DNA from: Amoebophrya sp. A120 | Taxonomy: Eukaryota; Protista; Dinoflagellata | Direction: 5' to 3' | DNA: 64,000 bases | Assembly (NCBI GenBank): GCA_905178155.1 | Contig: CAJINV010000005.1 | Span: forward strand, 1,452,438 to 1,516,437 | Shown: positions 5,616-50,200 of the stretch, one piece after another | Layout of the letters: every line of letters begins with the position of its first letter | Position numbering within the stretch: position 1 is the stretch's first letter | Notes under the pieces: generated by a model | What the model was told of the DNA's origin: nothing | Databases searched by the model: none | What the model saw: the letters and a program-made list of their open reading frames with translations, nothing else | Translations under genes and position numbers: made by a program

Positions 5616-8600
5616 TCACTTCGGCAGGCTCTTGATAACGTCCTTGATGTTCATGATTTCCACCAGAAAGGTCACATACTCGTGCCGCTTGATTTCCGCG
5701 ATGGGGTAGAACTTCGCGGAACCCCGACCAAGCAGTTTGGAATTGGGTTTTGCGGGGTTCGCGCCGTGTAGTTCTTGCAACATCTCCATTAATGCCAACC
5801 GCTTTCCGGGGCCGGTGTTGAACTGTTCCCTCGCTTGGCTTCCGGGGAAGAGGCTCAGTCGCACGTCCGCCCGTACAGTTTTGTCGGTGAAGTCTCCATT
5901 TACAAACAAACTACAGTAGGTCGGCGCGGGAGCCGCGGCCGCACCGTCTGCCGGCGCCGGGGGAGTCTGCCCGCTCGGGAAAAAAGTGAGAGTCCACATC
6001 CCGTGATCCGTCGGCATGATTTGTTCGGATAGGACAAATGTGTCTGGAGCCGGAGGGTTCGCTTGGTCGTAGGTTTTCTTGACGTCGATGGTCCACAGGA
6101 AGGTCTTTTGCGACGGCCCCGCATTGTGGTTCTTCATGTGCTGCTTGAGCTCCGCGATGACGTCAACCGAGGACTTGCGTGCCGCCACTCGATTCGACAC
6201 GAGGTCATCTTCGATGCCGGTCAGGCGGGTGGTCAAGTTGGTCCACCGCGTATTTTGGATTGACGTTTGCGTGAGCGCCTGGTCCTCGAGCGTTTTCAAA
6301 CGATCCTTCACCTCCTGCAACCCGCCGACCACGTTGCTGGACTCCTGCAGCTTCTTCTCGAGGATCTGGACGTGCTGCTCCGCCTTCAGCCGCCGGTGCT
6401 CTTCCATCTCCTCCGGCTTCATCGTCTCCCCGCAGATGGAGCACGTCACCCGGAGTTTGGGACACTCCGACGCGTGCCCCGCCAGCTTCCGCCGCTCCAG
6501 GGTCGCGCCGCACCCGTGCGCGCACGGCACCAGTTGGAACTCGCAGACCCCCAAGTGCTTTGCCAGCAAGTCTCCGTAGGACCCGATCCACGCGCAGCTA
6601 TGAACGGAGAACGAAACCAAAACGAACCATTTTGAGCCTGTCTAACTGTCACATTTACCGTCTAAATGTGACATTTAGATGGCGCACCGTCGCGCGACAG
6701 TTCCCCGACGGTGCCAACGGTGCCCAGATTGGCGGCACGCGCGCGCAACATCCCATCGCGACATCGATGGGCGCAAGGCGTCAAAGTGGGCTGCGAAAAC
6801 CTGCCATCCGCCTTCTCCGATGCACTGCAAGCCGGGACTCCGAGCGCAAAACGGAGGCGCATCGCCACCAGTCTCTCTGCAGACTCAAGCAACAAGAGGG
6901 CGGGCGGCGCGGCAGATGTAGCGAAGGCTAAACGGGGACCAACTCCGAAAGCGCACGCCCTATCTCCCAAACACCGGGGCGCACTAATGCAAACCGCCGC
7001 AGGCTTTTTCGAATTTTCAAAAAAATCACAGGCGCCTGCGCGCGCGCCGATTTGGTGGCGGCACTTCGTGTGCCGCCACGCTTCATGTTTTCCGTTCAGT
7101 TCCTGCGGGGTTGCGTGGGTGGGTGGCAAGCTCGCGGGAGACTTTGGAGACTCCTGAAACATTTTTGGGAACTTTGGACGACAGAGGGGTTGTGGTGCCG
7201 GGACTTTTTTCAAAAAGTCCCTCCGCCCTCTCATCCACGTTCTATTTTTCCCAAAAAGCCTCCACGCCTCCAATCGCGCGGGTTCCCGCGCAAAAATGTT
7301 TTCCCGATTTTCCCCTATTTGCGCCGCCATCGGTCGCCACCGCCCACGGCCGCGCCGCCCCATCAATTTGAAAGGCGAAAAACAATCGCAAACCACTGCG
7401 CCCCAACATCCATCCAGACTACGCGCCCCAATGCGAATACCCATGCCCGGCCGCTGTAGTTTGAAGGGGCCACGGGGGCCCGGCGCCCGCGCGCCGAGCG
7501 ACCGGCCAGCCCCCGCTTTCGTGTGGGCGCCGATTGGGCCAGTGGTTGACTAGAGCCCAGGGGCCTCGCCCTGATTCAGCGCGCGGGCCGCCTCCGGGGT
7601 AGCAGGGGGCCCATCGAAAGCAACGGGGGCAAGCAGGCCCGGCCCGACCAATGTATGGCCTGCCAGCCGGCCAGCCTTCGAAGAAGGCACACCGGGCCGA
7701 CCACTGATTCCAATGAGAGAGGGCAGGCAGGCCCGCACCAAGTCCGTCCGGCATATCCACATCCTCGCCCTCGAGGGCGCCCGAGCAAAAAAACCGCGGG
7801 CCGTTTGGGTGCCCTATGTAGATCTGCTACAGTGCCCGGCCGCCAACATACTACGCAACCGAAGGGGCCCGGCGGGCAGTGAAACTGCGGCCATGATAGG
7901 TCGCAGAGCTGCAAGGCGCGCCCTGCCTTCCCGCCAAAAAATAAAAACCAGCCGGGCCGGCCGGCCCGCCCGGTGCCACCGGCGGCGGGTGCGCCGGGCG
8001 CAGGCGGGCAAAGCGCGGGCCACTGACGCCGACCAGGCAGCCCCCCGGGGGCCGGCCGGCTTTTAGCCGCTAAATGTGACACGGCTGCCACATTTACCGG
8101 CTAGCTGACACATTTAGCGTCTAAATGTGGCACGTAGCCGATAAATGTGGCAGACGTGTCACATTTATCGGCTGAAAGCCGGCAGATCCCTGGCCCGTCG
8201 CCCTCGGCCCAAGTCCCAAAACCCCCCGGGGGGGGGGTGGCGAAAGGGTTGGCGCAATAAGTGGGCGCGCTGCGTCAATGAGGGTCCGCCGTGGGATTAT
8301 TGAAGCGGGCGGGCCCTTAAGATGGCCGAGCGGCCCGCGGCATTTTTTTGTCCGCGCAGGGTGGCCAGGTGCGCGGGCGTGAACCTGGAAGACGATCACG
8401 GGTAGACTATTCCACGCCCGCCCTTGCCGCCCCCCGCACTAGCGACCGAGAGCGAAAGCAGGGAGGCAGGCGACCCGCCGGCCGGGGGGGCGCCAGGGCA
8501 TGCAGACTGACGGGGCCACTACAATGCGGAAACGGAAGAAAAAGAAAGGGGCGAAGCCATGAGTGCACCGATGGATGGGGGGCCGCCCCCGGCCGACCCG

Positions 8601-10293
8601 GGAAAAAAAACAATTTGGCGGGCCGCCCGCCGGCCTGGGGCCCATACGGCGCAACCCCGGAGGAGTTGGGGCCACTGCGCGAGCGTGCGTCCCCGCGAAG
8701 GAGGGCGGGAGGGTCGCTCCCCCGGGGGCGGGAAAAGGCATGCGGAAGCTGACTCGCTCGCTCCTGAATACGGGCCGGCATGCCCTAATCGCGCCAGAAG
8801 CCGGGGATGCTGCTCAAAAGCCAGCGCCCGGGCACACAAGAAAAAAAAATGCCCAAGAACCTTCAGCAGAGCCCGGCCCGTCGGAAAGGGAGAAAAAGAA
8901 GGGGCCCGAAGGCGGGGCGGCCTTCACTCCTGCGGCCGGGGGAGGCAGAGAAAACCAGAGCGCCAAGGGGCCGTCGCCGAGGCCCGTGCAACAGGGGCCA
9001 CACAACATAGAGAGAGGGAGGCAGGGCACGCGCCGGCGCGGGCGCTCGCCCCGCCGCAAGCCTTGGGCCTGTGCAACTGTGCCGCGCGGGTTCTGGTGCT
9101 TTTTCGAAAATCAAATTTATCGAAAGGGGCCGCCGGCGCACCGATCCAAGCTAAGCCGCCGGCCTCTGGTAAGTATCTCGCAGACGGCAGCGAGGATGGA
9201 CCAAGGGCGCGCCGGCCTTTTCTGGTATATGGGCAAAACAGGCCCAAACGCGCCGGCAAGTCCGTCGGAAGCTGTTGTCCCTCCGAAGCTACACCGGAAG
9301 GGCGCGAGAGTTTACGGCCAACGACGCATAGGGACGAAGGAAAAGAAAAAGGAAGGCTGCGCAACAGTCAGCGCGCCTCCCGGAAGGGGAAACTTCGCTT
9401 CGCGCGGCGCAGATTCAAACACAAGCGGGCACGGCTTCCCAGGAATTCCAAGCAAAACTCTTCGCGCTGCTGATCCAAAGAACCATACTCCGGGCCCATT
9501 TCTTTTGTTCGTTCAGCGAGCTCGCAAAGCGCTGCAAGCTGCGCTAGCCGGCTAAATGTACCATTTAGCCGGTAAATGTGCAAACTAGACGAGGCGGAAA
9601 TGGTTCGTTTTGGATATTTTCTCCCTTTGTACGCGCAGCACCCGGTAGCCTGTTTTACTTCCGCACTGGGACCTGCACCGGGGTCCAGACGGGCTTTCTT
9701 CGCAGCAGGGGAACACATCACAACCGCCACTTCTTCGGACCCGGAACTGTTCGTGCTCGAGCCGTTGTTGTTCGTACCCGGCGCGCGCGCCGGCGCGGGG
9801 TGGTTCGGACAATAAACCTGTTTGAAGTTTGTTGTCGTTGTGTGGTGCTGGTGTTTGATACAATTGGCATTGCCGGTCCTGTATACATAAATTCACAATT
9901 GGAAAAGAAAAGGTCTTCGTCCTCGCTTGCACGTTGCACCAAGTCAAGAAGACCCTACCTCCGTCGAAAAGAACCAAAAACAAGTACCTTCAGGCCGTTG
10001 AGCAGTCGCAACGCGAACTGGTTGCAGTCCTTGAGCGGGGTAGACCTGTTCGTCGCCGGCAATTCCTGACGACAGAGCGGGCAGGCCAACAACCCGGAGA
10101 CGCAGGGTCCGCAAAAAATATGGTGGTTTGCGCACTTCAACTGGACCGGATCCTCCCACAAACAACGGCACACCGCGCACTCATACTCCCGGGCCAGACT
10201 TTTGGAGTCCTCGTGCACGATGTCCTCGATGGTAAACTTCTTAGCGCCCGCTTTGCAAGCACCTGCGAACGGTTCTAAACCTCCTCCCAACAT
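5616..10293 (-). CDS. TRAF-like protein 2: RING, zinc fingers, coiled coil, MATH-like (~490 aa), interrupted by a 3-kb TIR element that can act as intron 2
   Basis: Exons 9988..10293, ~9633..9817 and 5616..~6597. Intron 1 is 9818..9987 GT-AG (LNGLK|VYCP). Removing 6598..9632 (GT...AG) restores ...CAWIGSYGDLLAKHL in frame, matching the CxWxGSYGDLLAKHL motif of the three paralogs. Confidence 0.8.
6599..9631. mobile_element. 3033-bp TIR DNA transposon (hAT-like ends), decayed GC-rich interior, inserted in the TRAF-like 2 coding sequence
   Basis: 8-bp target-site duplication CGCGCAGC at 6591-6598 and 9632-9639. TIRs TATGAACGGAGAACGAAACCAAAACGAACCATTT and TACAAAGGGAGAAAATATCCAAAACGAACCATTT (27/34 identical); similarity continues to about 80 bp, with CACATTTA/TAAATGTG subterminal repeats. 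No intact transposase ORF. Confidence 0.9.
8055..8183. repeat. 129-bp imperfect palindrome with six CACATTTA/TAAATGTG motifs at the midpoint of the 3-kb element
   Basis: Arms 8055-8117 and 8121-8183 (56/63 complementary), loop CGT 8118-8120. Motif copies at 8071, 8089, 8109, 8122, 8142 and 8160. Confidence 0.9.
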
Positions 10294-11398
10294 TTTGTCC
10301 TCGATCAAAGAGTTTTCTCGGCTAGCAGTTTTTTTTGACGCGCGGGCAAAGATTAAGACAGAACAAAGGAAGTTAAGAATGGAACCGACACCGGCCACGA
10401 TGTGACTAGTGGCACACTCCTCTCTTGTTCACGACACACTTCCATTTTCGAACGATACACGACATGCACGATATTTCGAGGAAAACTCTCGAAAGCGAGT
10501 ACAGTAGATGCATCACGAGAACAGGGGAGACGACAAATATAGTAAATCAGAAGCAACGAGAACGAACACGATGCCGAAATGGCACTGGTGCAAGATCGGA
10601 ATCGGGCATCGTGAAGACGTGGAGCGATTTCGATTTAAAAAGTCCCCCCTCGTCGATACGCACACGTATCGCTCGGATGGCTTCCTCAGCACTTCGACCT
10701 GGTGCAGGCGAAACATGTGCCGCCTTGGGATCTCATACAGCTTCGGGTCACAGACTCTACGATCTTGATACGATTTCAATTTCGCCCTCGGCGAGTGGTT
10801 CATTTGTGAAGATTCAACTAACTTCAACAGTTTAATTCAAACAATTGTCTTTTGGTGATGGATTTGCGATTTGGTGCTTTGGGACTGGGAATAAAATTAC
10901 ACTGATAAAACCGATTTCGGGGAAACGGCAATTTTGTTTGCGACTTCAAACGCGCAGCTGCTTATTTGATACATTAATTACGTAAACATCATCAAAGGGA
11001 AAACTATACGAGAGATAGAGGTTGGATACAGCTGCTTCTAGGCTATTTTCTTTGGTATGTGTTTGTCGTTCATTTTTTTCAGAAAAACCTATCGTAAAAG
11101 TCACGGGAAAGAAGTTCCAAGTGAGTAAACGTAATGGCAACTCGTCGTGCCCAGCCTTCTGCGTCAGAACCCAGTGACCAGGCGAGTGCCTCCGTTCTGA
11201 TTTCTGCTGTGCAGTGCAATGATGAAGGTCGTGCTCGTGGAACTCCCCTTCCCCTCACCAAAACTCGCGACAGCCGCAATTTCTAAAAAATCAACTCGCA
11301 TTTATGGCGGTAAATCTAAAATAAAGTATTCATTCTTGTTTGGTACCTGGTTGCCTTCCTCGCACCTACGCTTGTCACCAGCTCCTGCCTCAAGCTAC

Positions 11399-14237
11399 CT
11401 ACGGCGCCACCCCCTTCGTAACTTCAATGAAGTTCTTCAGCTCGATCAAAAACGTGACAAAATCCGTCTCCTTAACTTCTTGTATCGGAGCGATGCGACC
11501 GCCCCAGCCGGTGCCTTCGCCGAAAAGTCTTCCGGGTAGGGTGCTGACCTGCCGCAAAGATCGCCCACCTGTTGCCCAGGGCCAAGCGCTGTCACCTCCC
11601 GCGCCCACCTCCATGGCATCGACGACATCTTTCGCTTTTCCCGGCAGGAGCGTGATCACCGCTTCAGCGATAAGCGAGGTTCTCTTGTTGATCGGGTCGG
11701 CAAACAAAAACGCTTCCATGTGCGTCGGCGGAGTCTCGTTGCCGGCGTTTTCTTGCGTCCAACCGCTTGGATAGATTCGGAGCTTCCAGGGACCGTGTTG
11801 CGTCAACCAGAAGTCATTCGACGAGAAACTGGATGGGTTCTTTGCCGAAAACTTCTGGTACATTTCCTTCACGTCCACGGTCCAGGCGACTCGACTTGAC
11901 ACGGGGGGCCGCTTGGCAGCGTCTTCTTTGCCTTTCCCTTTGGTGTTATCCTTGACAAAAAGGAGATCGTCCTTCAGCGACGTCACGCTGCGTGCTAGAT
12001 CCGCAGACAAAACGCTTTTCACCGCTTCGACCTCTGTCTTTACGGTGTTCCCGAGGCGGTCCTCCACCGACGTCAGTTCCTTCTTCAAAATCGTTGCCAA
12101 CTTCGTGTCGAGCGGTCCCGCTGCGGTCGTGTCGTCGTCCGGGGCAGTTCCAGTTCCCGTGGGCGCAGCACCAGCGATTTCTGCAACAGCCGCTAGTTCC
12201 ATCTTGACATCCGCCAGGTCCGTCCTGATGCTAGCCTGCAGTGAATAGAAGCCGAGGAGGAAACTCAACGGCAGCAGAACACCAAAAGCCACGAGAAACG
12301 CACAGGCAACAAAGAAGGCACTCCAAGAGGTGTTTGCAAGCATGTCACGCTGCTCCGTGTTCGTTGTCGCGACTATAGCGTCAAGTTTCTTCAGCGCCGT
12401 GGCGGTTGCCATTCCGCCTTTTACTTCTTCGATTTTCGCCGCAGTATCATCTGCTACCGTGGATAGACGTTTATCCAGCTCTTTGAGCCCGGATGCGGTT
12501 TCGTCCTTCACTTCGTTGATTTTCGCTTCAGTCTTATCTGCTTCCGTGGTTAGTCCCCTCCCCACGGCCTTGAAGCAAGAAGCGGTGGCGACCATGTGGT
12601 CCTTCATTGCCGCGTTGATCGTGGCTGCGTCCGCCGCCGCTTTGCTACTGGTCGTTGCAATGTTGCTCAACTGCGACAGGACGGTCGGCCCACTGGTAGC
12701 CTTGATGGTTCCGTGCACTGGGAGCGCTTCGTGACACGGAACAAACTCCGCGATCACCGTCACAAAGTTATGCTGCTTCAGCATGTCGAAGTTCGCAAAC
12801 TCTTTCCAGCCCTGCCCGTCGCCCCCTGCTAGGAAGCGGTAAGGCGCTTTGGAACGCGCCGTCTCCAGGAGGACGACATCCTGACCAGTGGAGGAACTGT
12901 TTTGATGTTTGCTCCCCGCAATTACCTTGACCCGCATGCCCTTGACCTCAACGTATTTTGTCGTGCTATCGGCTGCCAAGCACAGAAAGAGACTCATCCA
13001 CTTCGTTGGAGAAGCGCCGGTAGCTGCTGCTAAAGCTGATGTTCCGGCAGCACTGCTGATGCATCCGCGTATCTTGAATTTCCAGGGGCCGAACCCCTGC
13101 GTGGAGACAGGCGGAGAATACAGGTCCAGGTCCGGGGCCAGGCCGCCATGTTCCTCGCTGTAGATCTTTCTCACGTCGATGGTCCACTCTATCTTGGATG
13201 TTTCCGTCACCCCGATCTGCTCGGACAGCCTCGTCAGTTCGGCGTCCTTCCTCGCCCCTTCTTTTTTCAGGATTTGCACATGGAGTTCCGCGAAGGCCCG
13301 ATGGTGTTCCGCCTCCTGGTCCGGTTTGTACTTTGTGCCGCAAATGTCGCACTCCTTGAGAAGTGCGGAACAATCCTTCTCGTGCTCCTCCAACTGTTTC
13401 CGCTGCAGCGAAGCACCACAACCGTGCGGGCAAGCGACGAAGCACCACCCGCACTGGCCAAGGTGCTTCGCAAGCAGATCTCCGTACGAGCCGACCCACT
13501 CGCAGAAGATATCGCAGGACTCCTCGCCTGGTTGTTCCGTCTGGTGTCGCAGCGCTGCGGCGGAGTTTCCAGCTCTGTTTCCGTCGTCCTCGCCCTCCGG
13601 GGAATTGTTCCCGGAGGTGCTGCAGATTGTCGTGGAGCTCGTAGTTGTCGCTTTACTAGATACGGAGGACGAGGAAGAGGCACTGGCAGTGGTGACAAGG
13701 GAGGACGAAGAGGACGCTTTCCAGGATGACGCGGGGTCTGGATTCGCGTGCGGGCAGCGCACCTGAACATGTTGATGTTCATCCACTTGTCTCCCTACGC
13801 ATCACGTGTCTCGCCGTTGCTTTCGGCTTCATCACGCTTCAGGCTAGGAAAGAGTATAGTAAGCAACTAGTTGTACATGATGGAAGTTTACTAGCCAGGA
13901 ATCTATGATCGAGAAAAGACCAACAAGCGAGCAGCAAGTAAAAGGCTTCCAAATAAGCCCAAATATGTAGTACCTCGAGGTTGTTCAAGGCCCGAAGCAC
14001 GAACTGGTTCACATCTTTCAAGGGCGCCGGCTTCGTGTCGCCGAAGGGCTGGCGACAAGTCGGACAAGCCTGCACCTCCGCAACGCACGAACTACAGAAA
14101 ATGTGGTGGCAGCCCGTCTGAACTGGATCATTCCAAAGCGACAAGCAAACTGCGCATTCGTAGTTGAGAGCGTCCTTCCTAGCCTTGTCCTGCACAATGT
14201 CGTCGATCCTCAGCTTGTCCCGCCTTGAGGACACCAT
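11399..14237 (-). CDS. TRAF-like protein 3: RING, zinc fingers, MATH-like, coiled coil, internal TM, coiled coil, second MATH-like domain (~875 aa)
   Basis: Exons 13974..14237 and 11399..13762, with GT-AG intron 13763..13973 (LNNLE|VRCP). MATH1 is IEWTIDV...SPPV...FGPWKFKIR...MSLFL...GQGWKEF. The hydrophobic segment is WSAFFVACAFLVAFGVLLPLSFLLGFYSL. MATH2 is VAWTVDV...SNDFW...HGPWKLRIYPSG...MEAFL...GTGWG. Confidence 0.85.
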
Positions 14238-15232
14238 GGTGTCTGTTTGGTCTGGTTTTTCTTCTTTATCTTTGCTGACGCACAACGTAAAAATTTTTCG
14301 TCAAAGACACCGACTTTATCGCAAGACTGAATTTTTCATTTTTTAAGAGAAGTGGTTTTGTTCTTCTTGAGTTGCTTGCTGGCTTCTTTTGATGAGACGC
14401 AGAAATTTAAGATATCAACGTTAATCGTGAAGGTTCCGTTTCCAGACGAGGTACTTTCTCGAACAAGAGACGACGATACCGATTCTCTCAACGGCCTCTC
14501 ATCCACCGCGAAATGACGAAAACGACGAACCACGAAGGCTGACGAGGTCGGATGCCTGCTGCAAAACGAAAATTTAATATATGAATCTATCAAGCGATTT
14601 TTTTTTTGATTCCAGGAATTCTCCTTTGGATACGATTACGGACCCGAATCGCTCGGATGGTACATAGTTTAGAACTCTAGGAGCGAAACAAGTAAACCAT
14701 CACCATATGCAGATCATACAACCGGATCATATTCAACATTTTCACGATAGTGCTCCTAAGTCGTGGTCTGCTCAAGTACATCAAGTGTGAGGGACATCAA
14801 TCTGACATGGAGATGGACCTAACGACGGCATAGACGTGCAGATCACGGAGCAGGCGGGCCCAGCGAGGAGCACATCTTTATAGTGCACCTCCAAAGTGAT
14901 TATTACGATTACGAAAGAACTTATCATGATCTTTCCGTGAGGTCCGAGAATATCAGAATTGATCGCTTTTCTTTTCACATCGGGCGAGAAGACTAAACGC
15001 AAACGCATCAAAAAAAAGCCGAAGTTTGCTACGCAATTCATGGCTCATCTGGTGTGATGGCGGTGCGTTTTTCCTTGTTTGTGCATCAGTGTGCTTAGTA
15101 TATGCTACTTTAGTGAGGGGTTCAAAAATAGTGTCGCTTTGTTCTGGAGGAGGAGGTAATTTGCTCGTTCGTCGAGAGTTGTGTAGCTACAACAGCAGCA
15201 AAACATTATCAACGCCAAAATTCAAACCTACA

Positions 15233-31082: not shown

Positions 31083-34000
31083 TCACATGAACGCCGCTCC
31101 CGTCGACAAACTGGAAGTGCTTTCATCGACTGGAAACTGCGGTCCGAAGTACTTCACGTCGAGGTCGCAGTAATACGTTTTGTTATCCTCGTCCAGAACC
31201 TTTTCGTGCACCTTACACCCCAACGTCCTCCGACACTTCTCCACATCCGCCCCATACCCCCGACATTCCTCTTGTTTCTGTGCCTTCGCGTGCTTCGACC
31301 CCTGCGGGCCCTCCTGCTCCAGTTCCATCGGCGTTTGCACGTTGGGGACCTCGCCGGACAGCGTTTCGCACTGCTCCACGCCGTGGGAGAGCGGGGCGTT
31401 CGGGTCGACGGGGCCGGCCAACCCTGCGGCGACGTCTTGGGGCGTGTAGGTTTTCACGCAGGGCGGGTCGGAGGAAATGCACTTCGCGATCTGCTCGCGC
31501 ATCATCTGGAGGGCGGCCTGTTAACGTAACGGCTTTTCTTCACTAGAATGCTGCGTAAATAATTTGACCCTCTAGCAGCTCTACGATTTCAACATCTTCT
31601 ACGAATTTATTGCAGATAATGCAACATGATCACACGGAACACACACACACCACAAAACTTGTTCTGAGTACCGATATTCCCCCATGGCACTTCGCTCCGC
31701 TGAGAAAGTTTCCGGTCTGGCACGGCGTTCTCGTGGCGTGTTGAAACGGTCGTCCCGGCCAAAACACCGGAAAGGAGTTGTTCGTCGAGATATTCTGCAC
31801 CTCACTGTCGATGGTGTTGCTGTTCATCGTTTTCTTCTCAAATTCAAACGCCGTGACATTCTCCCTCCCGTTCTGCCAATTCTCCACTTCGAAAAACGGC
31901 TTCGGATCCGTTTCGTTGTCCGTGCTGGTCAACCGGTTGAAACTGGTTTCCCACTTCACCTTCGCAATCTCATTCGTCACGTGTCTTTTGTAAGGGTTCA
32001 GGTAAAACCAGCGCGAAACTTTATCCGGCGTGACACTGTGATCGCCGAACGGCTCGGCGATGACGGCGATGTCGTCTCGGTTCTTCAAGACCCACTGCCC
32101 GGTTCTGTTCCGCTTTAACATATCCACAGAAAAAAACCCATCCACATCCATTTTTTGCATGACAAACACAGAGTTTCATGTATGTTTTGCATGACAAATT
32201 GGATGTGGATGGGTGTTTTTTCCTGGATATAACAGCAAGTCCTCGTACTCCGATTGCTCGGCGGCCGTTCGGGTTTTGTTTCCGCGCAGTTCCATCACAC
32301 GGCTATCTTCCAGCCACACGTCGTCCTGCGTTTTCAGATCTAGGCTCGCCCCAAAATCCAGCCGGATGCGCTCGAACGTCGCGTCGGGGCCGAGCTCTTC
32401 GTTCATCCCCGGCGCTGGGTCCGTTTTGTTCGGCAAATCGTAGACGAAAGGTTTTTCCCCCGTTGTCGGGTCAGTCAATGTTTCCTCGATAACCCTTGGC
32501 ACGTACTTCCCCCGCAAATCGTTCAGAGAGTTGATCGCCGGATTCGTCACGTCGTGCTGCAATTCCGGGAGTTTCAGGGTGATTGGCGGTTTTGGGTAAA
32601 CGAAGTTCCCGTTGATCTTCACTGGGTGGGACAGTGGTGCGATGTGCCACTTGGTCAAATCCTTTTTCGAATCCGCGGAAATATTCCCCGGCGACAATTC
32701 CGGGGAGACGCGCATTTCGAACAAATGCAGCCGTCCCCCCTCCTGAATGTACTCCTGCCGGAACCTTTTCGGCTCCGACGGTTGGGGTAGTCGGTACCAT
32801 TTCCCGCCAATCCCGAGCTCTTTCAGCGCGTGTTCCTCGTCGATGGTGATCTCTTTTCCGGAAAAAATAGCGTCGATGTCCTGTTCCACATTCGGATCCA
32901 AACACCGGCGGGGAGCCGTCTCGATGTCGAGGTCATCGGTTGGAAGATGGGTCGTGTTGTCGCCGCCCACGTGGTCGTCCGCTGTTTCACCTAGCATCCC
33001 GAGATCTTTGTCGATCGCGCGGTCGTGCCGGCGACATGCTTCGTAGATCCGGAACACATCCTCATCCTTGATCTTACTTTTCGGGTCGACGAGGAAGGCT
33101 TGAGGTTGGGTGGGCGGGGGAGGTGGTGGGGGTGCGTTCGAATCCTTTGAAGATTTTTCACTCTGCTCTTTCAGAAGTTTCTGTTCCTGCTGCTTTATTT
33201 TCGCGGACGAGATACTGCCCACATCCGGACTGCTCCCGTTCAGCATCTCCATTCTCGCCTTCAAAACCCTGCCCGACCACTTCCGTTGGAATTTACAGAG
33301 TCTTCCCTCCTTGTTCCCTGCCGACATCCGATTGTACCATTGGTACTCGAAAACGTCCGGAATGTCCTTCCGCTTCTCCACCCGCGGCGCGGTGTAGTGG
33401 ACCACCCTCCGCGCGCCCCACCGGATCTGCGCGTTGGGGGTTTCCAAGCCGTCCGGCCGGCAGAAGTCGTACAAAACTTTCGGCGTGTACGCTTGGTCCT
33501 GTTCGTTCTTGAACGGTTTCCCACCGACCACGGAACTGTCGACCCACTGGGTCACCTTTGAGGGGAGCAGAATGTCCCGCCCGGTCGACTCCGCGATTTT
33601 CTGGACGACTTCGTGCTCCCCGTTCCTCGTGGCGACGTACAAGCCCCACTTGTGGTCGTGCTCGTGGTTGTAGAGCAACACCGCCACTTTGTACGCCTTT
33701 TCGAATTCCTGCATCAAATCCGGCGAGTCGTGCTTCAGGAAAGCTGCCAGGGTTCCTTTTTTGTACTTCGTCGGCTTCGAGGGCTCGGGCTCGGGTTCTT
33801 CGGGAATAATGTCATCTTCTGGGTGTCCGTGTCCTTTCGGGTCTTCGAGTTTCGGCTCCCCGTTTTCGTCTGTTTCTGAGGTGGAACCCATTCCAAACAT
33901 GCTGATCCCCTTGTCCATCAGATTCTTCCCCGTGTGGTCCATCGCGTCTTTTCCCTTGTCCACAAATTCATCAAACTTTTCTGTCTATCAAATGTAAAAA

Positions 34001-35750
34001 TGTCTGGGTCTGGAAGGATGGGACTTGTGATGCGTCCTGTGGATCACACAAAACTCTGTCTTGCGTGATCAACAAAAGACGCCCTTTTCTGACCACCATG
34101 AGAGGGAATTTCTCATGCAGGACAGGCATGATAGAGACCTCGCAGAATCGGTCATGCTATGTCCTGCATTCCAGACCTTATGGGGCATGCAAATTCTGCA
34201 TGACAAGTTTGCACTCTTCCCGACCCAGACATTTTTGCAATCCATACTGTCGCCTGCTCGACCAATTCCTCCCCCTTCTTCCAAGCCGCGTCCATCGCCG
34301 CTTCTAGACTATCCCCTAAGCCCTTCGTTTTGTCCAAAACTTTGAAGTACGCCGGCGGGTAGTGCGGTGGGGGGTTGTTTTTGTCGAAAGCGATGTTGTT
34401 CGGGCTGGAATTAGACGGCGGAACGGTAGTCGCCATCAGCCACTTTCCATTCAACCCTTTTCGTTCCTCCTCAAACCCCTCGAATTCTAAATAGCTTGGC
34501 GCTACACACTCATCCCGGCAGTTCGCGCGCGCAAACGAGAACTCATCGACGCCCTTCTCATCCGCGTGCGACCGCATCGGCGGGCAGGCGTGGTTTTTGC
34601 AGACTTGCTTGCAAGTGTCCTGCCGGTTCACGGATTTCTCGTGCTCCAAATCGTAGCTCGATTGGTAGTCGAGGGAGAGCGGGATCTGGTTCTCCGGCCT
34701 GACCCGCTGGTTCTCGTTGATCTCGTACAACTGTTTCACCCCGTGGGAAAAGGGGTTGATGCTCGTGTAGATCTGCTTTTTCAGGTCGCCGGGGATGAAC
34801 TGGGTTCGGAGATGGTGCATCTGGTGCTCCACGTCCACCTCGATTTCGAACCGCAAGTTCGGTTTCCGCCTGCAGTCGATGTAGAAGGGAGTCCGTTCCT
34901 GAATCGCCTTCATGTGCGGCGTGAGTCTGTTGCTCCCGTTCAAAAAGTACGTCGCGTCCCAGTAGACCATAGCGCGGTTTTTCGGCGTGTCGAGTACCTC
35001 CCCGTGGTTGGCGGTTCTGGAAAGTTCGCCCAGTGAGTCGCCGTAAACGGTTTTTTCCTTGTCCACAGAACTTCTCTCCGTCGCGGTTCCAGAGGAGATG
35101 GACGCTACATCTTCATGGTTCTTCTCGTCCAAATTTGCATTCGGATTGTCGTCCAGTAACCGAACGTGCACGAACCCTTGCGGCCGGCCGAAGGTCACCT
35201 CCGGGTGTACTCCCTCGTCTTTTCTCCAGCCGGAATACCCGCATTTCTTCAGCTGCAGCCACTGGGCCAAATTGGTCCTCACATTCGGCGGCATCTGGTC
35301 CGCGACCGGTGGGCCCTCGTCTTCGCCACCGGACAAACTGTCCATCACGCCGCCCATCGCGTCTTTCCCGAGCTCCAGCAACGTGTCGCCGTGGTCCTGG
35401 AGGAAGCCGCCCGGATCCTTGACCGCACCGGCGGCGGCCATCATTGCGGTAGGGGGCACGGGGAGCATGAAGGAGGTGTCGTGGTGGAGGGGTCGTGGTG
35501 GGTAGCTGCGGATGTTGCCGGGACGGAGAAGATTTCGCCACGCTGCTCTGGAGAAGAAGGTAGAAGAAGACCATTGAGGGCTGCGGCTCACAGCACCCTT
35601 GGTTCCTGGTGCTGTGAGATCCGCTTCGGCATCAGAGGTGCAAAACGATGACCGGTTGTGTTGACCCGTCCAGCGAGAGGCTGACGCTTTGTTCTCTGGT
35701 ACATCGCCAAAGAGGTGGTCTGTAAGATCATGTCGGACCCCCACGACCAT
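31083..35750 (-). CDS. Large unknown protein (about 1370 aa or more) with Cys clusters and degenerate G-K-W/Y repeats; four exons, two introns are TIR elements
   Basis: Four minus-strand ORFs join in frame via introns ~33985..34247 (GT-AG, TIR element), ~32120..32230 (non-canonical, TIR element) and 31518..31671 (GT-AG). The start codon is uncertain; the first in-frame ATG is at 35750. Confidence 0.7.
32121..32229. mobile_element. 109-bp introner-like TIR element forming a non-canonical intron
   Basis: TSD TAACA at 32116-32120 and 32230-32234. TIRs TATCCACAGAAAAAAACCCATCCACATCCA and TATCCAGGAAAAAACACCCATCCACATCCA (26/30). Contains an in-frame stop; removal gives DLLLKRN. Confidence 0.88.
33986..34246. 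mobile_element. 261-bp introner-like TIR element forming a GT-AG intron from TSD plus TIR bases
   Basis: TSD CTGTC at 33981-33985 and 34247-34251. TIRs TATCAAATGTAAAAATGTCTGGGTCTGGAAG and TATGGATTGCAAAAATGTCTGGGTCGGGAAG (26/31). Splice ACA|GTATGG...GATAG|ACA is in frame. Confidence 0.9.
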
Positions 35751-35929
35751 GATTCTTTTGCAACTTCTATTCCAGTTCTTGCTAAATAATGATGTCGCCG
35801 CCAATTGCTTAGCTCTTGCTCTGGCACTTGCTTCTAGTCTGGCAGGTCAGACATGATTGCTCATCTTCCTCGACCGAACACCACAAGCGATAGGATGTGG
35901 ATGATGGCGATGCTATGTCACTCAATTAC

Positions 35930-41200: not shown

Positions 41201-44200
41201 CCATCGCCCGTTGTTCCATTTTCTTCCTTCGAGCTAGTTGGTTCCCCAGCGCTGGTCCCCGGCACTTCTGTTTCTGCCTTGTAGATCATCTCCTGCAGTT
41301 GTGTTTTCCCGGACACGAATCTCGTGTCCAGAATGTGCGAGATATCTTCGTCCGGGTGCGACGGCCCGGAAAGGATCATCTGCGTGCGCGAGCTGTGCGC
41401 CTTCCGGTTAAACACAACGGCCGCGTGCGCCATGTCGCCCGCGTCAAAGCCGTTGGTGAGTTTCAAGTCCGCGATCGCGAACCCGTGGTGGTCCGCTGCG
41501 GAAGTCCCCGATTGGAAGGAACTACACCTCCCGTACTTGATTCTTGCCTCCCCGAACGACTGCGCGTTGTAACTCAAGTCGAGATGCTCTAATGACTTCG
41601 TGTGTTTCACCAACGCGCGGAGCGCCAGCAGGCCATCGTCTAGCAGAAAATTCCTGCTCAAATCCAGTTTCTGTAAAAACGTCAAGTGCTGCAGCTCCAC
41701 CACCTCCGCCTGCCCCGTCGTTCTCCCCAGCCCGCAGTCACTGACGTTCAGGTCCATCAAGAACGGCGTGTACCCGGAGAGCGACCTGAAAAGCTGCAAG
41801 AACAGTCCGGGCGAGCACCGCTTGAACCCTTGGAGATCCAACCGCCGGAGAGATTTTGGTAACAGACACGTTGGCTGGACCAGGCCGACTAGGAACAGAT
41901 CGCCGAGCTGTGGGTTGTTGCCAATCACGAGCTCCTGGAGGTGGGAAAGGACTTTTGGAGTTTTGCTTTTGTTTTCCTCGTCTGTTTGTTCATCATCGGA
42001 TGAAGTTGCGCCGTCGGAAGAGGTATTCGAATTTGCTGTGGGTCCAGCATTTTTGTTCTTCATCACTGCAGCAGCCGCGACTGTCTTTGCATAGTCCTTG
42101 TTCCAGAGCTTCAGGAAGTTCAGAAGCGCTTCCGCGGAGAACTGATTCCCATCGAGGTAGAGCCGCCGAATCGCGCGCCTGCTTTCTAGAAGCTCCCTGA
42201 GAATGTTCGTCGTCCTCCCTGCGGAGATGACGTCTTCTTCCAGTAGGAGTTTGACCAAATTGTGTTGCTTCAACTTGTCCGCCTGTTCGAAGAAAGAAGT
42301 TTTACCGCTTGGATTTTCTTTCCTGCTCAATTTCAGCGCTAATTTGATCGCTTTTCCTTCTTCCTCTTCCTCCAAAGCCATCTGCTTCACTGCTTCGGTG
42401 CTGCAGATCAACTCGTTGTCCTCCAACTGCCATTGGCTGAAGTTCAGAGTTCCCGGACCGCCCAAGACGAACTGCGAATTCCCAAACGCAAAGGCCGCGC
42501 GTTCGGAGCACTGGAGTCTCCTCGCGGTGCGGATGTAGAGTTGATCGGCTATGGACTCCGCAACCGTGTTGGTGGTTAACCTTGGCAAGTGCAGCATCGC
42601 CTCGAAGAGGGACTCCCGCCAATTCCGTTGCTGTTTGTCCAAAGTGGAGATGACAGATTCCACGCCCGGCGGGATGGTGTCGAGGAGAAGCGTGTCGTTC
42701 AGGGTTCTGAACCTTGTCGAGGACGAAGTACTAGATGAACGGGCTCTTGTGTCAGGAACTGGACCTGAGGCTTTATTTGACGAAGTGTTGCCTGTTAAAA
42801 GCTGAGCCGGTGGCGAAGCCGCACCAATCTCGCTCGTACGAGCGCGACGCATGGACTTGCTCCAATCGTTCAGCTTCTGTTTCGTTTGCTTCTTGTGAAT
42901 CGTTGGCGAAACCCAAAAGGGATTGTTTGAGGGCTCTTTTCTCTTTCTCGGTGGTGTGCCGAAGTGCGCTGGCTGGTCAGCAGCATCCACGTCTTCTCCG
43001 TTCCTTGCAGCTTCTTCTTCAAGAGCTCTACTTTCACTGCCTCTAGCTGCATTCACCAAAACCATCCTCCGCAAAAACTTTTCCGGATACGAGCGTGCCA
43101 ATTCCATCCGCTCTGGCTCGGAGAGAAGCGGGAAATACCGCCCCAATGCCTTTGCGTAGCTTTTCATCTGCAGCCTTATCTGCTCCTGTTCGGTCATTTC
43201 AGTTTCGTCGAGACCTGCGTTCGCAGTGTGTGCAGGTGCACCATTCATCCTGCCGACAGTACTAGCATTCCCCTCGTCCACCCCCTTCGGACCTACCTCC
43301 ACCAGTGCTTCTTTTCTCGCTCTTTGAAAATCTTCCACCCTTTCTATCAACAGCGCTTCGCACTGCCCGATGCTCATCTCGTTCTGGGTGGTGACAAGCT
43401 TCAAGTGCTTGTCCTCACGGAGAATCGGTGCGTAGTTCTCCTTCAGGTAGACGGCGTTTGACCCGTCGAGATCGTGTGGGGCTGTTTCTCTTGCCTTCCT
43501 GCTGCTCGCGAGCTCATCGTACACGTTTGCAGTTTTACTACCATGCCAGGGGGAGCTCGCTGTCTTGCTGTACTGTGAATGGCCCTTCACCTTTTGCGGA
43601 GAGGAGGAGATCGATCGCATGGAGCTGCTTAATGTAGTTGTTTTCATCATCATCCTCTTCTTCGCCGCCAGCTCGGCTTGCGCATCCGCGAGCAAGTCGC
43701 CGCCACGACCTTCGTCCATTTGCTCCTTCGCTTGCACAGTTGCAGGATTTCTGTTCTGTTGCGGACCGGGGATGCAGAAGTTCGCTGTTGCGGAGGAAAG
43801 CTTCAACTTTTCCAACTCCTCCGGGTCGTTGAAAAAAAACGCGGTACCTGGCTGCTTCCTGTACCTTCTCAGGTCCCTTCCCTCGTGCTCGAGCAGGGTT
43901 TGCGCACAGGAAACCACTTTGCAAACCGACGGGTCGTTCGCGGTGCGCCCGTGCTGCTTTTGCTTTTGCGGGCTCAGGCTTTTGGACTTTATTTTCAAGT
44001 GATGGTGACTGTGGTCGGTTTGATGTGTGGTCGCATGCGGTCCACCAGGGCGGTAAAAATGGTGCCCGTCTTGATGAAATACATTTTCGCCTCCATCAAC
44101 TACCTGATCCTCCTCCACCACTCCGCGAAAGGCGTATTTATTCGCCCCCCAAGAATGCAGCGCCTCGTCCGCCGTCGACGGCCTCCCACCGCGGAGGACT

Positions 44201-47200
44201 TCTTCGTTCGAATACTTGTAGAAGTCCAACCCCTGTAAATGCTGGAGAGAATCCTTGTCCACTTTCGGCACATGTTCCTGCACGGGGCCGTGGATCGTTT
44301 CGTGCGCGACCATCTTCCGAAATGCGATACTCGTATCATTTAACCGGATCAGGTGACTCGCTCTTGCAGTTGCGAAGGGGGCGAAAATGCCCTTCGGGGG
44401 GGAGAAGGGCGGGGTTTCTGGTTCGTGTTGGTGGTGTTGTGGTACCATCACGGTGGTGCTCGCGCTTCTGGTGTTTGTGCCGCCTACTGAAGTTGAGACG
44501 TCTTCGGAATCTGGGAGGTTTTGTTCGCTGCAATCATCATGATTTTCGCCCGCGAAAGTAACACCTTTGGATCCGGAACGACGCGGCTCAGTTCCGGAAA
44601 GTGGGGCTCCTTGGCCGTTGTCCAGCCCTTCGCCACAAGCCTCCTGTGGATTTTGTTCACAATTGCTTTCCAACCCCAACGCCCTAGCCCCCACATCGAC
44701 AATCATCGGCTTCAAAGTTATCTTCCGCAGGGGGGACAAAGCTCCCCTTGTCTTCCGCCTGTACGGGCTATTTCCGATCATCTCTGACGACGCAGAAACG
44801 GGAATTTTCTGCACCTCCAGATACTCCCGCCGGCTGTCCTTCTGCTGCTTTTTTATCACGGATTCGATGTTTAAGCTATTCGGAAAAAACTTCGCTTTGT
44901 CAACCTCTTCGTCCGACTTCTTGTACATCCGGCTGTGTTGCGTGAAAAACTCGCTGTGCCGCAAATCGTAGCTCGGTAGTGGCGGGTGGTTTACACTGCT
45001 GTTGTTGTGCGTCAAGAAATGCTTCTCCATCGCGCTCAAGCTCCCGCACCGCGCCATCCACTTCTCAAACGCTTTCGTGTACGGGCCAAAGGGGTCTTTG
45101 AACGTGTTCCGGTGGTTTTTCCCGATGGAGGTCGCGTGGCCGGAGGCGGTGACGATGGCGAAGTGCTGTAAGTCTGTATTCAATAACTCCCGGTTGTCGA
45201 CAAAAATCTGCTGCATTTGCTGCTGCCGGCGTAATCCCTTCGTCGTAGCACATATTCGTTTCACACAGAGCAAAACCCGTCTCGCCGTATTGCTGTTCTG
45301 CACGTGGTGGGCGAGAATTGAGGCCGGGGTTTGATGGCTAAGCGCAGTTGTTACAGTACCACCGGAAGAAGTGATTTTGCTTTTCCGCGTGCGGGACTGG
45401 AGTTCCTGCGCCGCGGTTAGAGATTGGTGGTCACGGTCACCAGCAGATGCCGGGTTGTGATTATACTCGCCGCTAGTGGAGGAGAAGCCCGCCCCACCTC
45501 GTCCCCCACCAGTCGACGATTTGCTGTTGGCCAGAACTTTGGAGCCCCTCGTCCCGACCACCGATTTGGCTCGGTTCCGCAGAAACGTCAGATTGGCCTC
45601 GTGCTCCCCGTCGTCGTCAATCAAGCTGCTGCGCGCCATCTTGTTGTTGTCCGCGATGTTGTGATGCGAGATGCACACCGTGTGGTGGACGGAGAGCTGA
45701 TGAAGCAGTTGCGGCTTTTGCTTCGAGCCGGGCAATGCGGTGCTCCCCTTCGACGACTTCGTCTTCGAAGATGTGGACTTTCTGCGGTTCATCTGCTCGT
45801 CACTGTTTTCGCTCACCCTCGGTAGATGCAGCTTCGACGTAGTTTTACTGCCAAATAGTAGACCAGCACCCCGTTGCCCCCCTTCTGCGGAAAATCCAAA
45901 ACCGCCCGAAGTAGAACTCGTCGACGAGCTTTTGCTCCCGGCGTGCGAAGCCGTCATCCTTCTTTTTTTCAAATTACTCGCCGTCGTGCTCATCATCACG
46001 GTGCTGGCCCTCGCTTTCGATCCCATAGCGCTCGTCGACGGGGTGACCACGGTTTTGCTGCCCCGTCTCTCGTTCTTCTCCTCTTGGAGTAAGAGGAGCA
46101 GATTCGTATCCGAGCAACTCCCATCGGCCATTTTGCTCCAGGATTCTAGTCCGAGTAACAGCGTCTGCAAGAAGTCGTTCGTCCGCTTCTCTTGCCGTCT
46201 TCGCAACGCGAGGTCCGCTTCCTGCGCTAGTCGCTCAGCGGCCTTGGATCTGCGGAACAGGTCGGGGGTGTTGGCGATCAGCTCCAGGAATTCCAGGAAG
46301 TCGAGGTTGCCAGACCTAAGGATGTGGTTTCAAGGATTTGACGAGAAGTGATACTGCAGCAGCAACTTGTAGTACTACACTGCGAACCCATGATTCCTTG
46401 GTCATCTTGCAACATGCGCAATTCATCAAGTTGTAGTAGATGACGATTCTGTTTTGTGATCTTTATGCAAGAACAGCAATCCATCTCCATGTATAGTACG
46501 AATCCGCATCCGCCTTCTCAATCGCCACTCTCAACGTCTCGTCGTCAAACTCCAGATCGTTTTTGAGCAAAACCGATATCCAAGAAAAAAACACTGTTAG
46601 TGTAAATTTGTGATGCTCAACATACAAGATGATTGTGGCTGTCATGTTTGGCATGCATCTTAAGGTCCATGAAAGGGCGATTTCACGTACTATCTGCGCA
46701 TGACAGGTTTTTGCTGTCATGCCAGACAAATTTGTAATGCTGTTCCTCCAATAAAAAAGTTACACCTACAATGTTTTTTTCTTGGATAACCGAAGCCAGT
46801 AGATCGTTGTCCACCGCTTCCGTTTCTTCCGACGCAAACCCGTGAAAAATCCGCAAGAACTGACACAGCTGCTTCGTGTCCCACCGCAGGGCGTCGATGA
46901 GCTCGATGAGCCTCGGTTGCTTTCCATCTTCAAACAGTTTCGGCCCATCCGGCATGTTTTTCTCCATCCAGTCTTGGAGGTTGGAGACGATGGTTAGGAA
47001 TTCCACAAAATCCAAATCGCCCGAACCGTCAATGTCCACCTTGTCGTATTCTCGTTTGATCAGCTCCTTATCATTGGGTAACAACTGCAGCGCTTGGAGG
47101 GTGGTTTTCAGTTCCAAGAAATCCATCGACTCCGATCCGTCCTCGTCGAAGCAGAGGAAGACGGTTTTCAGGGACAAGACCTGTCTGGAGGTGTAGTGTC

Positions 47201-50200
47201 TTTTCTTCAGAATCTGGATCAACGGTGGTAATCTCCCCTCAAAAATCGACTGTCGCGGTTTCGTCGGGTCCTTCATCGTTGCGGTGATGATAATGGTGTC
47301 GAACTTCTTTTCTAATTCGGCGACTTCATCCAGTTTTTGTTTGTCTTTTAGGAAAGGAGAAGCGCCGCTCTTTGGCTTTGTACTTGACGTAGAAGTTGTT
47401 CCGATGCTTGTTATAATTTCACTTGCCGCTAGATCGTGCAACTTCTTCTCCAAGACGATCTCCAAGTCCTGCATGGACAGCCTTGCGTTCCGGGCGCGGA
47501 AGATTTTCTCAACCAACGAGAGGAATTCGACGAAATCTAGGACCCCATTTCCGTCCGTGTCGTACATCTCCAACAGCATGTCCGCGCACCGCTTCGTCAC
47601 ACTCCGGTATCAAAAGAAAAAAGTTCGTCACGATCACTCATGGGCATTTTTGCAATACAAAAAATGCCTCGCCTGTCATGCGTAAACATGCATCACAGCC
47701 AAACAACATACGGGATTTCCCTTAGTGTTTCTGCAATACAAGGAAAAGCTATGATGCTAAAAAAATTGTAAATGCAAAACCCCCAATTTAGTGACTGTGA
47801 CAAACTTTTTTCTCTCCATATCCGGTCGATCGCTTTCAGCAGCGTCCAGAAGTCTTTCTGGTGCACCACGTGGGTCGTGGTCGGCTGTAGATGTAGTTCT
47901 GGCTGGGAGGTGGAGGACAGGGTCGCTGTGACAGGTAGGCGATCTAGTTCTCGTCCTGCCCCTGATGTGCCGCGCAGTACTGACATCGTAATAGCAGTAG
48001 AAGAAGGGCCGCCGGGGGTGCTTTCTGCAGCGGCAACAAGGCTGACATTGTGCTGATGTTGTTGTCCAAGAACTCCTACTCCACCTCCACCTGAAGGAGC
48101 AACGTCGTCACCGCTCCCACTGCCCCCCTTCTTCAAATCCGATAGCTCCGTGAAGCATTCAAACATGGCCAAACACAGTTCCAAATCGTCCAACGTCAAC
48201 CTCTTGTACACATACGGAATGTGCAAAGTAGACTGCGGAAACTGGGCCAATAGCAGCAAAAACGAAACGAAATGCGCGGTCAAGGGTTCTTCTTTTTTCT
48301 CCACGTGCCCAAAACCCAAATCCACACCGAGAGAAACCGCACCTGTAATCATTGGACTAGCCCTGGATTTACTTTTGCCCCAGATGTTGCTAGTTGAATC
48401 GATGGTCACCGCAGAAGAAAATCGGTGCTTCAGCAGAATACTTTTCCCGAACCGTATCTGCTCCGCCGCGCTTCGCGAGTGCTGCATCGGCCGCGAGTCG
48501 GCGGTTAGAGCGCCACCGGTACTAATAGAACTAGCGCCAGCCTTTTCCGGGGATCTGGAAAACGCGGACCGCTTCACTCGTTCTGCGAAATTTTTCACGT
48601 GTTTGTTCTCCCGTTTCAGCTTCTTGATCCGACTCCGGTTCCGCAGGTTCGTCAAGCCTCGGACTTGAAAAGCGATGTCCTCGAAGTACAGACCAGGGGA
48701 TTTTACGTGGACTTCCATTTCCTCCAGTTGACCCGCAGTTGTCATCGACGCTGCTGCGCATCCCATTATACCACTTTCCGTCGAACCATCCGGAGCTCCT
48801 GCAAAGCTCGTTTTCGTCTTCGAAGAGTGTGTCGAGGTGGACCCGACTCTCACCATTGAACTCGAGATCGTGCTGGTCGCTTTACTGGTTTGTCTGCTCG
48901 TAGTACTACTTCCGTCCGCATTCACAACTGCCACTGCCGTTGAAGTCACGGTTTTATGATGTTCTCGCCGGTCGATCGTCAAAGAGGACGCTCTTGTCGC
49001 CGTTCCCGATTCGACGGCGGTCATGGTCGTCGAAACCATCGTGCTAGTCATGGTTCCCTTGGGACTCATCATCGGACTCGCAGTTGTGCTTGGTGGTGCG
49101 GTGGATCCAGAAGGGATGTAGTTGGAAATCCCCGCGGCGCGCTTGGCCAAGGCGTCTTTCTCCTTCTGGTAATCGGGGTGGAAAACGGATTTTTTCGGCC
49201 CGCCAGCCATTAGAGTTTTTCTCTGCCCGTCCTGCTTGCGTTTGAAAAAGTTCTGCAGTCGCTGCTTCTCGTCTTCCGTGTCGGAGAGGTTCGCTGCTGA
49301 CGTGTTTGTTCTAGTATCACCCCGCTCTGACTTGGAAGTCGGTGACATTTGCTGAACCGACGCTCTAGAAGTCGTGTTACTGTTCGCCATTTTCGGCGAC
49401 AGTGACCGGGAGGAACTCGCTTTCGACTTGCCGACGACAGGCATGGAAGCCCGCGAACTGTAAGTCTTGTCGAATATGTTGAAACTCTCGTCTTCAAGCC
49501 CCGAGCTCGCGCAGCTGTACCGAGAGTCCTTGCTGTTGCTCTTGGCGCGCCGATCGAAATCAACAGTGACGGATTTGGTTTTTCCAACATTTTGATGTTG
49601 TGCGCCGCTGAAGGAGCTGCCTGAAGCGATCGCGACAGAATTGGTCGCGGCCGCCCCGGGTGGGTGAAAATGTCCGCCTACAGGTGGTTGTCCCGCCCTC
49701 GCCCCACCCAGTTGGGTCAGCGCAGCTAACTCGTGGTGCTGAAGGGTCAAGGGTTCGACAGCCGCTTTGGGATCGGGTAAATCCAAAACCCCGCGGAGCA
49801 GCTCCTCGACGAAGCTCAAATCCAGCTCTTCCTCGGGCAGAATCTTCCGCAGAATTTCCAGGCAAACCTCGCAGTCGATCTTCGGTAATTCGCCCGTGAT
49901 CCCCTTCCGCGCTCGTCGAATCTTCTCATCCACGGTGGTTCTGACCTTCGCGACCTGGAGTGGGGGCTGCTGCTGCTGAAATTCACTGAAGTTGGAAAAT
50001 GCAGCTGGTAGTTCCTCGGCCTCAGAGTCGTCTTCTTCTCTGGTTGCCTTTGCTGGAGCTGCGGTGGCTTTGGACATCTTGTAGTAGGCCAGAAACATGC
50101 ACTTCAAGGAAAAAACGTCGTCCGCGTTCCAACCTTTTTCCTGATTAATAGGTGCAGTTTCACATTTTCATTCAAGATGCGATTGCGAACGCGGTGGCGG

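Follow-up and report, generated by a model that had tools for sequence, protein, structure and literature searches.

The window analysed here, a 64,000-nt stretch of the genome of Amoebophrya sp. A120, carries on its minus strand a RING and TRAF zinc-finger gene, a gene for a large protein of no assigned domain and part of an EF-hand gene, and the exons of these genes contain five terminal inverted repeat (TIR) elements, labelled E1–E5 (Table 1). In their text, Farhat et al. 2021 (PMC7789003) report that 65% of A120 introns are non-canonical, many of them with inverted and direct repeats and with inverted repeats starting TAT; no U1 small nuclear RNA (snRNA) was detected, and the intron borders are called ‘variable’ or ‘unknown’. 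How these introns are spliced without detectable U1 is an open question, and their borders are undefined because the direct repeats hide them. Here, we report that at all three elements covered by transcripts (E1, E2 and E3) the sequence removed equals the element plus five nucleotides (element+5), across two lengths of target-site duplication (TSD).

An original prediction, made from the sequence alone, had placed the five elements in coding exons, and their positions, TA at both termini (5/5) and exact flanking direct repeats of 8, 5, 5, 5 and 5 bp were all confirmed. The longest inverted repeats in the window include the element ends (I2, I4, I5, I10 and I11). Loose TA..TA pairs numbered 174, 187 and 171 in three 30-kb shuffled controls, and not one carried an exact TSD of at least 5 bp. 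Inverted repeats capable of forming a hairpin stand at both intron ends in 5/5 cases. Folds were computed for the ends of E1 and for E2 and E3; the two short elements reach z of −7.6 and −6.7, and in the E1 fold the GC-rich TSD copies pair with each other, opening the last TIR pairs. E1–E5 are A120 introners, a known class. An inverted repeat of TAT, seven looser bases and at least three A fits E2–E5 and not E1, one end of which starts TAC; likewise the 5-nt direct repeats of E2–E5 lie within the 3–5 nt given by Farhat et al., and the 8 nt of E1 fall outside that main-text range, although inside the 3–8 range of their Fig. S21 legend. E2–E5 therefore fit the description, and E1, which differs in size, TSD and one end, behaves like the TAT introner families but is not filed in them. 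The introners described in that article (PMC7789003) are, like those here, bounded by inverted repeats (TAT, then an A run), flanked by direct repeats (a 5-bp example is in Fig. S19), hairpin-forming and non-canonical with RNA support. Unlike here, its text gives no fixed length rule, and introns of 40–1000 nt were kept, which excludes a 3-kb member.

Removing only the element breaks 5/5 reading frames, whereas removing either the element plus two bases (element+2) or the element plus one TSD preserves 5/5. Because both removal models keep the frame, DNA alone cannot choose between them. Homologue alignments are ungapped across E2 and E3, and at E4 and E5 they are ungapped with the element+5 version and gapped with element+2 (scores 669 versus 647). 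Homologues without an extra residue at E2–E5 show the ancestral length, not the spliced product.

Transcript junctions came from runs X1–X3, which were taken as RNA by a tool’s guess, not by record, and whose sequences are assembled contigs. X1 and X3 are one sample, contigs drop rare variants, and transcript cover extends to E1–E3 (3/5). At E2, an X1 contig of 1890 nt (0 other letters, depth 14.7) omits 32116–32229, that is 114 nt or E2+5, and also skips a plain GT-AG intron of 154 nt; five bases fit both sides of the joint (32115–32230), leaving its placement ambiguous, and the product is scarless. At E3, the joint 33980–34247 in X1 (depth 6.3) skips 266 nt, or E3+5, again without a scar; this joint is weaker (side 47, marked ‘between: not known’), and an in-frame GT..AG intron of 263 nt at the same site is unused in the X1 contigs. 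At E1, the joint 6594–9633 appears in X1 (depth 4.9, side 183) and X3 (depth 2.8, side 67) and skips 3038 nt with no base shared between its sides. The only placement that fits it, among 100 tried, starts one base before the element and ends four bases after it (+1/+4), giving the ends GT..TG. Neither an in-frame GT..AG intron (3035 nt; its AG lies three bases earlier) nor a scarless product (3041 nt) is seen in the contigs. One geometric rule thus spans short elements and a 3-kb member, as had been proposed. No placement at E2 or E3 gives GT..AG and E1 is GT..TG, so a canonical donor/acceptor pair is absent at 3/3 sites, and an AG adjoining the stem is bypassed twice (E1 and E3). Run X4, covering all 30 bins, lists no E1 joint; X2 covered 5/30 bins of the first 19.9 kb without a junction, and the raw-read RNA runs X7–X9 matched element fragments only (1/30 bins each), with no junction.

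The joins at E1–E3 very probably reflect splicing, as seen from the E1 scar, the ordinary introns missing from the contigs and the lack of intergenic X1 depth. RNA from cells without the insertions, through empty alleles or DNA excision, would also explain why the joined form at E2 and E3 equals the pre-insertion sequence, and the RNA and DNA samples do differ, the RNA nature of X1–X3 itself being a guess. The E1 product, however, retains three duplicated bases and so is not an empty allele, a DNA-excision footprint being formally possible. The contigs also lack plain GT-AG introns (the X1 contig joined at E1 skips the one at 9816–9985) while their listed pieces agree with the window letter for letter, and X1 depth is zero in the intergenic bins 35812–37139. 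We consider this source of the joins very improbable.

The original prediction took each intron to be the element plus one TSD base per side (NT..AN), with TSD minus 2 retained as one or two extra codons. Removal of the elements from RNA was borne out at the covered sites, whereas the amount was not: the contigs skip 114 rather than 111 nt (E2), 266 rather than 263 nt (E3) and 3038 rather than 3035 nt (E1). Transcripts without the predicted extra nucleotides were looked for and are what the covered sites yielded. The annotated A120 proteins P0001 and P0004, which are 100% identical to the window exons, agree: at the E2 and E3 sites they read DLLLKR and QATEKF, with no added codon where DLL-L-LKR and QAT-T-EKF were expected, and at E1 the protein reads GCCAAWIG, with one extra Ala, instead of GCCACAWIG (from GCC-AC-AWIG). 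The two GT-AG introns proposed for E1 and E3 go unused in transcripts, and the listed ends GT-AG, AT-AT, TT-AT and AT-AC were predictions, which differ from the transcript junctions at the 3/3 covered sites. The element was also said to supply both the +2 T and the −2 A; T at +2 is seen at E1, and there is no −2 A acceptor.

The arithmetic of element+5 is simple: the product is scarless with a 5-bp TSD, longer by one codon with an 8-bp TSD and would be shorter by one with a 2-bp TSD, while other lengths would shift the frame. Since five bases go with the element, the TSD length less 5 has to be divisible by 3, so the proposed condition that a TSD of 3n+2 keeps the frame, which passed the frame test at 5/5 elements, follows from element+5 as well. 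Overall, the earlier interpretation is partly supported, with its specific rule replaced by element+5.

Table 1 Elements, introns and host genes in the window. Intron placements are given as bases before/after the element on the sense strand.
Feature	Positions	Strand	Description
E1 host gene	5616..10293	-	RING + TRAF zinc-finger protein, 489 amino acids (aa) (P0004); further GT-AG intron near 9816-9985
E1 TSD copy, 8 bp	6591..6598	.	Sense-downstream; first 4 sense bases intronic
Intron at E1	6595..9632	-	3038 nt = 1 nt + element + 4 nt, GT..TG; leaves one extra Ala
E1	6599..9631	.	3033-bp TIR element, TA..TA ends, subterminal repeats, GC-rich interior
E1 TSD copy, 8 bp	9632..9639	.	Sense-upstream; last sense base = intron base 1
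E2/E3 host gene	31083..35750	-	1377-aa protein P0001, no Pfam match; orthologues P0002, P0003
Intron at E2	32117..32230	-	114 nt; one of six equal placements: +1/+4 (AT..TT), inferred from E1
E2	32121..32229	.	109-bp hairpin element; 5-bp TSD 32116-32120 / 32230-32234
Intron at E3	33982..34247	-	266 nt, +1/+4 placement; 0/6 placements GT..AG
E3	33986..34246	.	261-bp TIR element; 5-bp TSD 33981-33985 / 34247-34251
E4/E5 host gene, part	46495..50167	-	EF-hand gene; span covers only part of gene
Predicted intron at E4	46573-46789	-	217 nt, TT..GG; predicted from element+5 rule
E4	46577..46788	.	212-bp TIR element; 5-bp TSD 46572-46576 / 46789-46793
Predicted intron at E5	47604-47821	-	218 nt, AT..GG; predicted from element+5 rule
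E5	47608..47820	.	213-bp TIR element; 5-bp TSD 47603-47607 / 47821-47825

We read E1–E5 as non-autonomous inverted-repeat transposons in exons, three of which are absent from transcripts together with five flanking bases, and we put the probability at roughly 60% that the cuts are set by distance from the paired ends (+1/+4) and not by GT/AG. Element+5 is removed even where a GT-AG intron is available, and the cut is therefore likely measured from the hairpin instead of from splice-site letters. A reading without any such measure would have the TSD copies recognised at the 5-bp elements, with E1 a standard GT intron whose acceptor is an uncommon TG, 3 nt beyond an AG. The removals at E2 and E3 equally amount to the element plus one TSD, the E1 end does read AG and then TG three bases on, and GT-TG sites have a literature, to judge from its titles. 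Yet a scarless product of 3041 nt was possible at E1 and is unseen, the product being again element+5, so that two unrelated mechanisms must yield one number; E3, moreover, also bypasses an AG adjoining the stem. We regard this account as improbable.

For a cut set by distance from the hairpin, the following steps may be envisaged. The TIR stem would form in the pre-mRNA, as the folds of E2 and E3 suggest, and serve as the landmark; the cuts would lie outside the stem, at one base from it on the 5′ side and at four bases on the 3′ side, a register that E1 displays and that would extend to the short elements. The catalyst could be a host U2-type spliceosome lacking U1, for which the first T of the element would act as the +2 U, with a putative branch point at or near its last A, at −5. 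We favour the host spliceosome as catalyst: A120 retains most spliceosomal proteins, the intron at E1 has a GT donor, and position +2 is taken by the first T of the element.

The same ruler could instead serve another catalyst, an endonuclease that is guided by structure and makes a staggered break, together with a ligase; such a route has been proposed for the nonconventional introns of euglenids. The acceptor letters appear free (AG at +3/+4 in 0/29 stranded elements, described below), canonical sites are ignored at E1 and E3, U1 snRNA is undetected in A120 (text of PMC7789003), and euglenid introns, as summarised in PMC11282704, pair at fixed offsets and leave as circles. Against this stand the GT donor of E1, the 83/89 spliceosomal proteins found in A120 and the 35% of its introns that are GT-AG (PMC7789003, text), and a tunicate spliceosome that splices TIR-derived non-canonical introns (PMC11282704, as summarised there). 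On balance, a nuclease and ligase seem somewhat unlikely.

Published A120 boundary tables look at first sight like NT..AN: the text of Farhat et al. 2021 (PMC7789003) gives this form for 8/9 top intron motifs (in A25 the leading motifs are TT-NN), and in Dataset S2 of Gozashti et al. 2025 (PMC12130899), of which 57/58 A120 rows were used, fam2 has 9,716 introns with 69% NT and 68% AN. The A120 gene models were built with BLAT. Our simulation placed a random 5-bp TSD around an element of the form TAT..ATA and shifted the intron to wherever GT-AG or CT-AC fitted best, the rule assumed for BLAT. Compared with fam2 (9,716 introns), simulated element+5 with sliding reached r 0.99 at both ends, with summed errors of 0.12 and 0.20 at the best setting and of 0.12–0.33 and 0.20–0.40 across four settings. 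The errors for element+2 were 0.62–0.86 and 0.64; under that model 100% of introns should be NT and AN, which leaves no room for the GC, GA, GG and CG ends present in the fam2 table. The simulation indicates that scarless removal masked by sliding likely holds genome-wide, and that the NT..AN look of the motif tables is likely an alignment artefact from sliding inside the TSD. Element+2 thus retains a kept frame at 5/5 elements and the NT..AN share of the tables; having failed at 3/3 covered sites as the main product, and with contigs prone to miss a minor isoform, it is now barely credible.

The total of five might hold without a fixed register, with short TAT families cut at +2/+3 or in several registers and +1/+4 particular to E1. 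In register fits with mismatched TSDs, +2/+3 has the lowest divergence for fam1, fam2 and fam18; the text of Farhat et al. (PMC7789003) calls the sites variable relative to the hairpin; and in the automated columns of the Gozashti dataset, fam160 and fam74 are +1/+4 but fam183 is +3/+2. The fit, however, depends on an assumed aligner rule, on guessed base frequencies and on up to three free parameters, and a noise term narrows the gap and erases it for fam1, the one tie in six fits. Both +2/+3 and +1/+4 beat their own mirror images, and +4/+1 and +5/0 rank last. The only unique junction (E1) is +1/+4, and a floating register with a fixed total requires both cuts to move together. As modelled, cuts at the short elements lean towards the 3′ side, with +1/+4 not singled out; we nevertheless find a floating register rather unlikely.

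The E4 family is also present in a relative, in which a scan with the E4 ends found it at 12 metagenome loci (L001–L012), 11 of them distinct. A catalogue made blind to TSDs lists 38 elements, 36 distinct, of which 22/36 have an exact 5-bp TSD and 33/36 one with no more than a single mismatch; no such element came from shuffled loci. One element has an exact 8-bp repeat that can also be read as a 5-bp repeat with one mismatch. It looks as though 5 bp is the family’s own TSD length. For a frame test, 3 catalogue entries (inner arms of larger hairpins) were dropped and 5 elements were added, four of them chosen with a 5-bp TSD. At nine multi-element loci, removing 5 rather than 3 or 4 bases gave clearly the longest frame in 6/9, a near tie in 2/9 and a worse result in 1/9, a test that is informative on the remainder modulo 3 only. 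The strand could be assigned by longest frame at 6/12 loci, whose 24 elements together with E1–E5 make up the 29 stranded elements. Here +4 is G in 14/29, and the last TSD base is a purine in 23/29 (background 56%, p 0.014), which is not significant over 16 positions. Seven TSDs in assigned genes of the relative carry mismatches, 5/7 of them synonymous; without an outgroup, these seven do not place the cut. Introners are far denser at L001–L012 than in the window, with up to six per 3.2 kb and gaps between elements down to 22–26 nt.

Several points weigh against a hairpin-measured +1/+4 cut. The register is fixed at the single site E1, which is atypical (3 kb, an 8-bp TSD and a real GT donor), and because its GC-rich TSD copies pair and open the last TIR pairs in the computed fold, that register could be local. 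The fits to fam1, fam2 and fam18 place +1/+4 second, and the purine bias at the last TSD base fails correction for 16 positions. Conservation of the +2 T and the last A is uninformative on splicing, both being needed for transposition too. The introns at E4 and E5 are predicted only, transcript cover being limited to E1–E3; X1 and X3 are contigs from a single sample, and if the annotation draws on that RNA too, as it may, the three are not independent and amount to a single source. No evidence bears on the chemistry, spliceosome versus nuclease and ligase.

Compared with other systems, the rows of the Gozashti tables (PMC12130899) are close in describing A120 families of TIR DNA elements, among them fam38 (‘5-bp TSD, TA/TA termini’) and fam160 and fam74, whose automated +1/+4 positions come with a 5-bp TSD. 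Unlike here, their mechanism labels vary by family and are built on annotated borders, with no common rule in those rows; E1–E5 were compared with them by table rows, not by sequence, and are not assigned to these families. Class 12 of Polarella glacialis (preprint text of Roy et al., bioRxiv 10.1101/2020.10.14.339549) shares the 5-nt TSD and, at NNAGG targets, the +1/+4 register; its donor consists of the final base of the TSD and the opening base of the element, and its acceptor falls within the TSD. Because class 12 depends on GC and AG, introns arise at selected targets only, in contrast to the 0/29 AG here. The likeness suggests a possible path from letter-dependent to geometry-dependent splicing, and ordinary introners inserted at NNAGG targets may be the origin of the A120 register. 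Introners that co-opt canonical sites (of the Polarella class 12, Micromonas and Aureococcus type) have a GT, GC or GA donor and an AG acceptor, a pairing that E1 with GT..TG lacks. Euglenid nonconventional introns, as reviewed in PMC11282704, resemble E1–E5 in TIR pairing at fixed offsets, TSD-like repeats, non-canonical junctions and lengths up to kilobases. Their pairing is of +4..+6 with −8..−6 (CAG/CTG), whereas at E1 +2 faces −5, the element starting at +2 and ending at −5; they are excised as circles and belong to an unrelated lineage. As for minor-spliceosome AT-AC introns, E5 would be AT..AC only under element+2, which failed at the 3/3 other sites, and U11/U12 snRNAs are not reported for A120 in the text of PMC7789003. 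No fixed-length rule or stated register was found in a literature search whose scope left out figures (Farhat Figs 3 and S19–S23), subscription papers and the final Roy et al. 2023, all of which may bear on the novelty of the element+5 rule.

The elements are repeated in the genome, element ends occurring with other flanks in the sequence runs; for E1, loose ends and doubled depth mark sibling ends elsewhere. The hAT superfamily is characterised by 8-bp TSDs, short TIRs and subterminal repeats. E1 shows all three of these hAT-like features and is not classed as hAT, no hAT transposase, or indeed any Pfam match, being found in its 7 internal open reading frames; Rfam gave three sub-threshold matches. 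Inside E1, a 119-bp near-palindrome at 8060–8178 is made from its own subterminal repeats and has a 4–6 bp direct repeat, so that a nested short element is possible, and at 6964–7043 a contig of run X4 replaces the E1 segment with 15 other letters at full depth, which is likely a sibling copy elsewhere. GC-rich (~70%) intergenic blocks at 36200–37500, 51300–52700 and 58900–60600 resemble the E1 interior in composition, and BLAST found no similarity between them and that interior.

Around the E1 host gene, four tandem RING and TRAF-like zinc-finger paralogues occupy 2208–19229 on the minus strand and share an intron position after the RING; E1 is in only one of them. A perfect hairpin with 33-bp arms and a 1-nt loop (18735–18801) lies within a normally spliced GT-AG intron, and DNA contigs break at its centre; it could be genuine or a product of assembly. 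A short repeat at 19274–19315, which lies upstream of a RING-TRAF gene, occurs next to many different flanks in both RNA and DNA runs and has a high summed depth. Just downstream of the EF-hand exons, an 8-kb stop-free frame of 2697 codons (38236–46329, minus strand) has no Pfam match and no introner.

It is conceivable, although we hold it at slightly less than even odds, that A120 removes most of its introns by a letter-blind ruler, by which any pre-mRNA stem of paired transposon ends, 100 nt to 3 kb long, is cut 1 nt before and 4 nt after, overriding GT-AG; every exon would then be a free landing site for transposons with 5-bp TSDs, and the catalyst would be either a spliceosome re-wired to work without U1 or a separate, second splicing machinery. 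A fixed element+5 rule would turn scattered motifs into one geometry, and the published motif tables would then mostly reflect the aligner. Elements with 8-bp or mismatched TSDs are the informative cases, and the rule points to a site at which to look for a branch point or cut. TA..TA families with 5-bp TSDs could thereby fill exons by the thousand. If true, a single design of transposon could spread through coding exons almost free of cost, and gene models in the Amoebophrya lineage would need correction.

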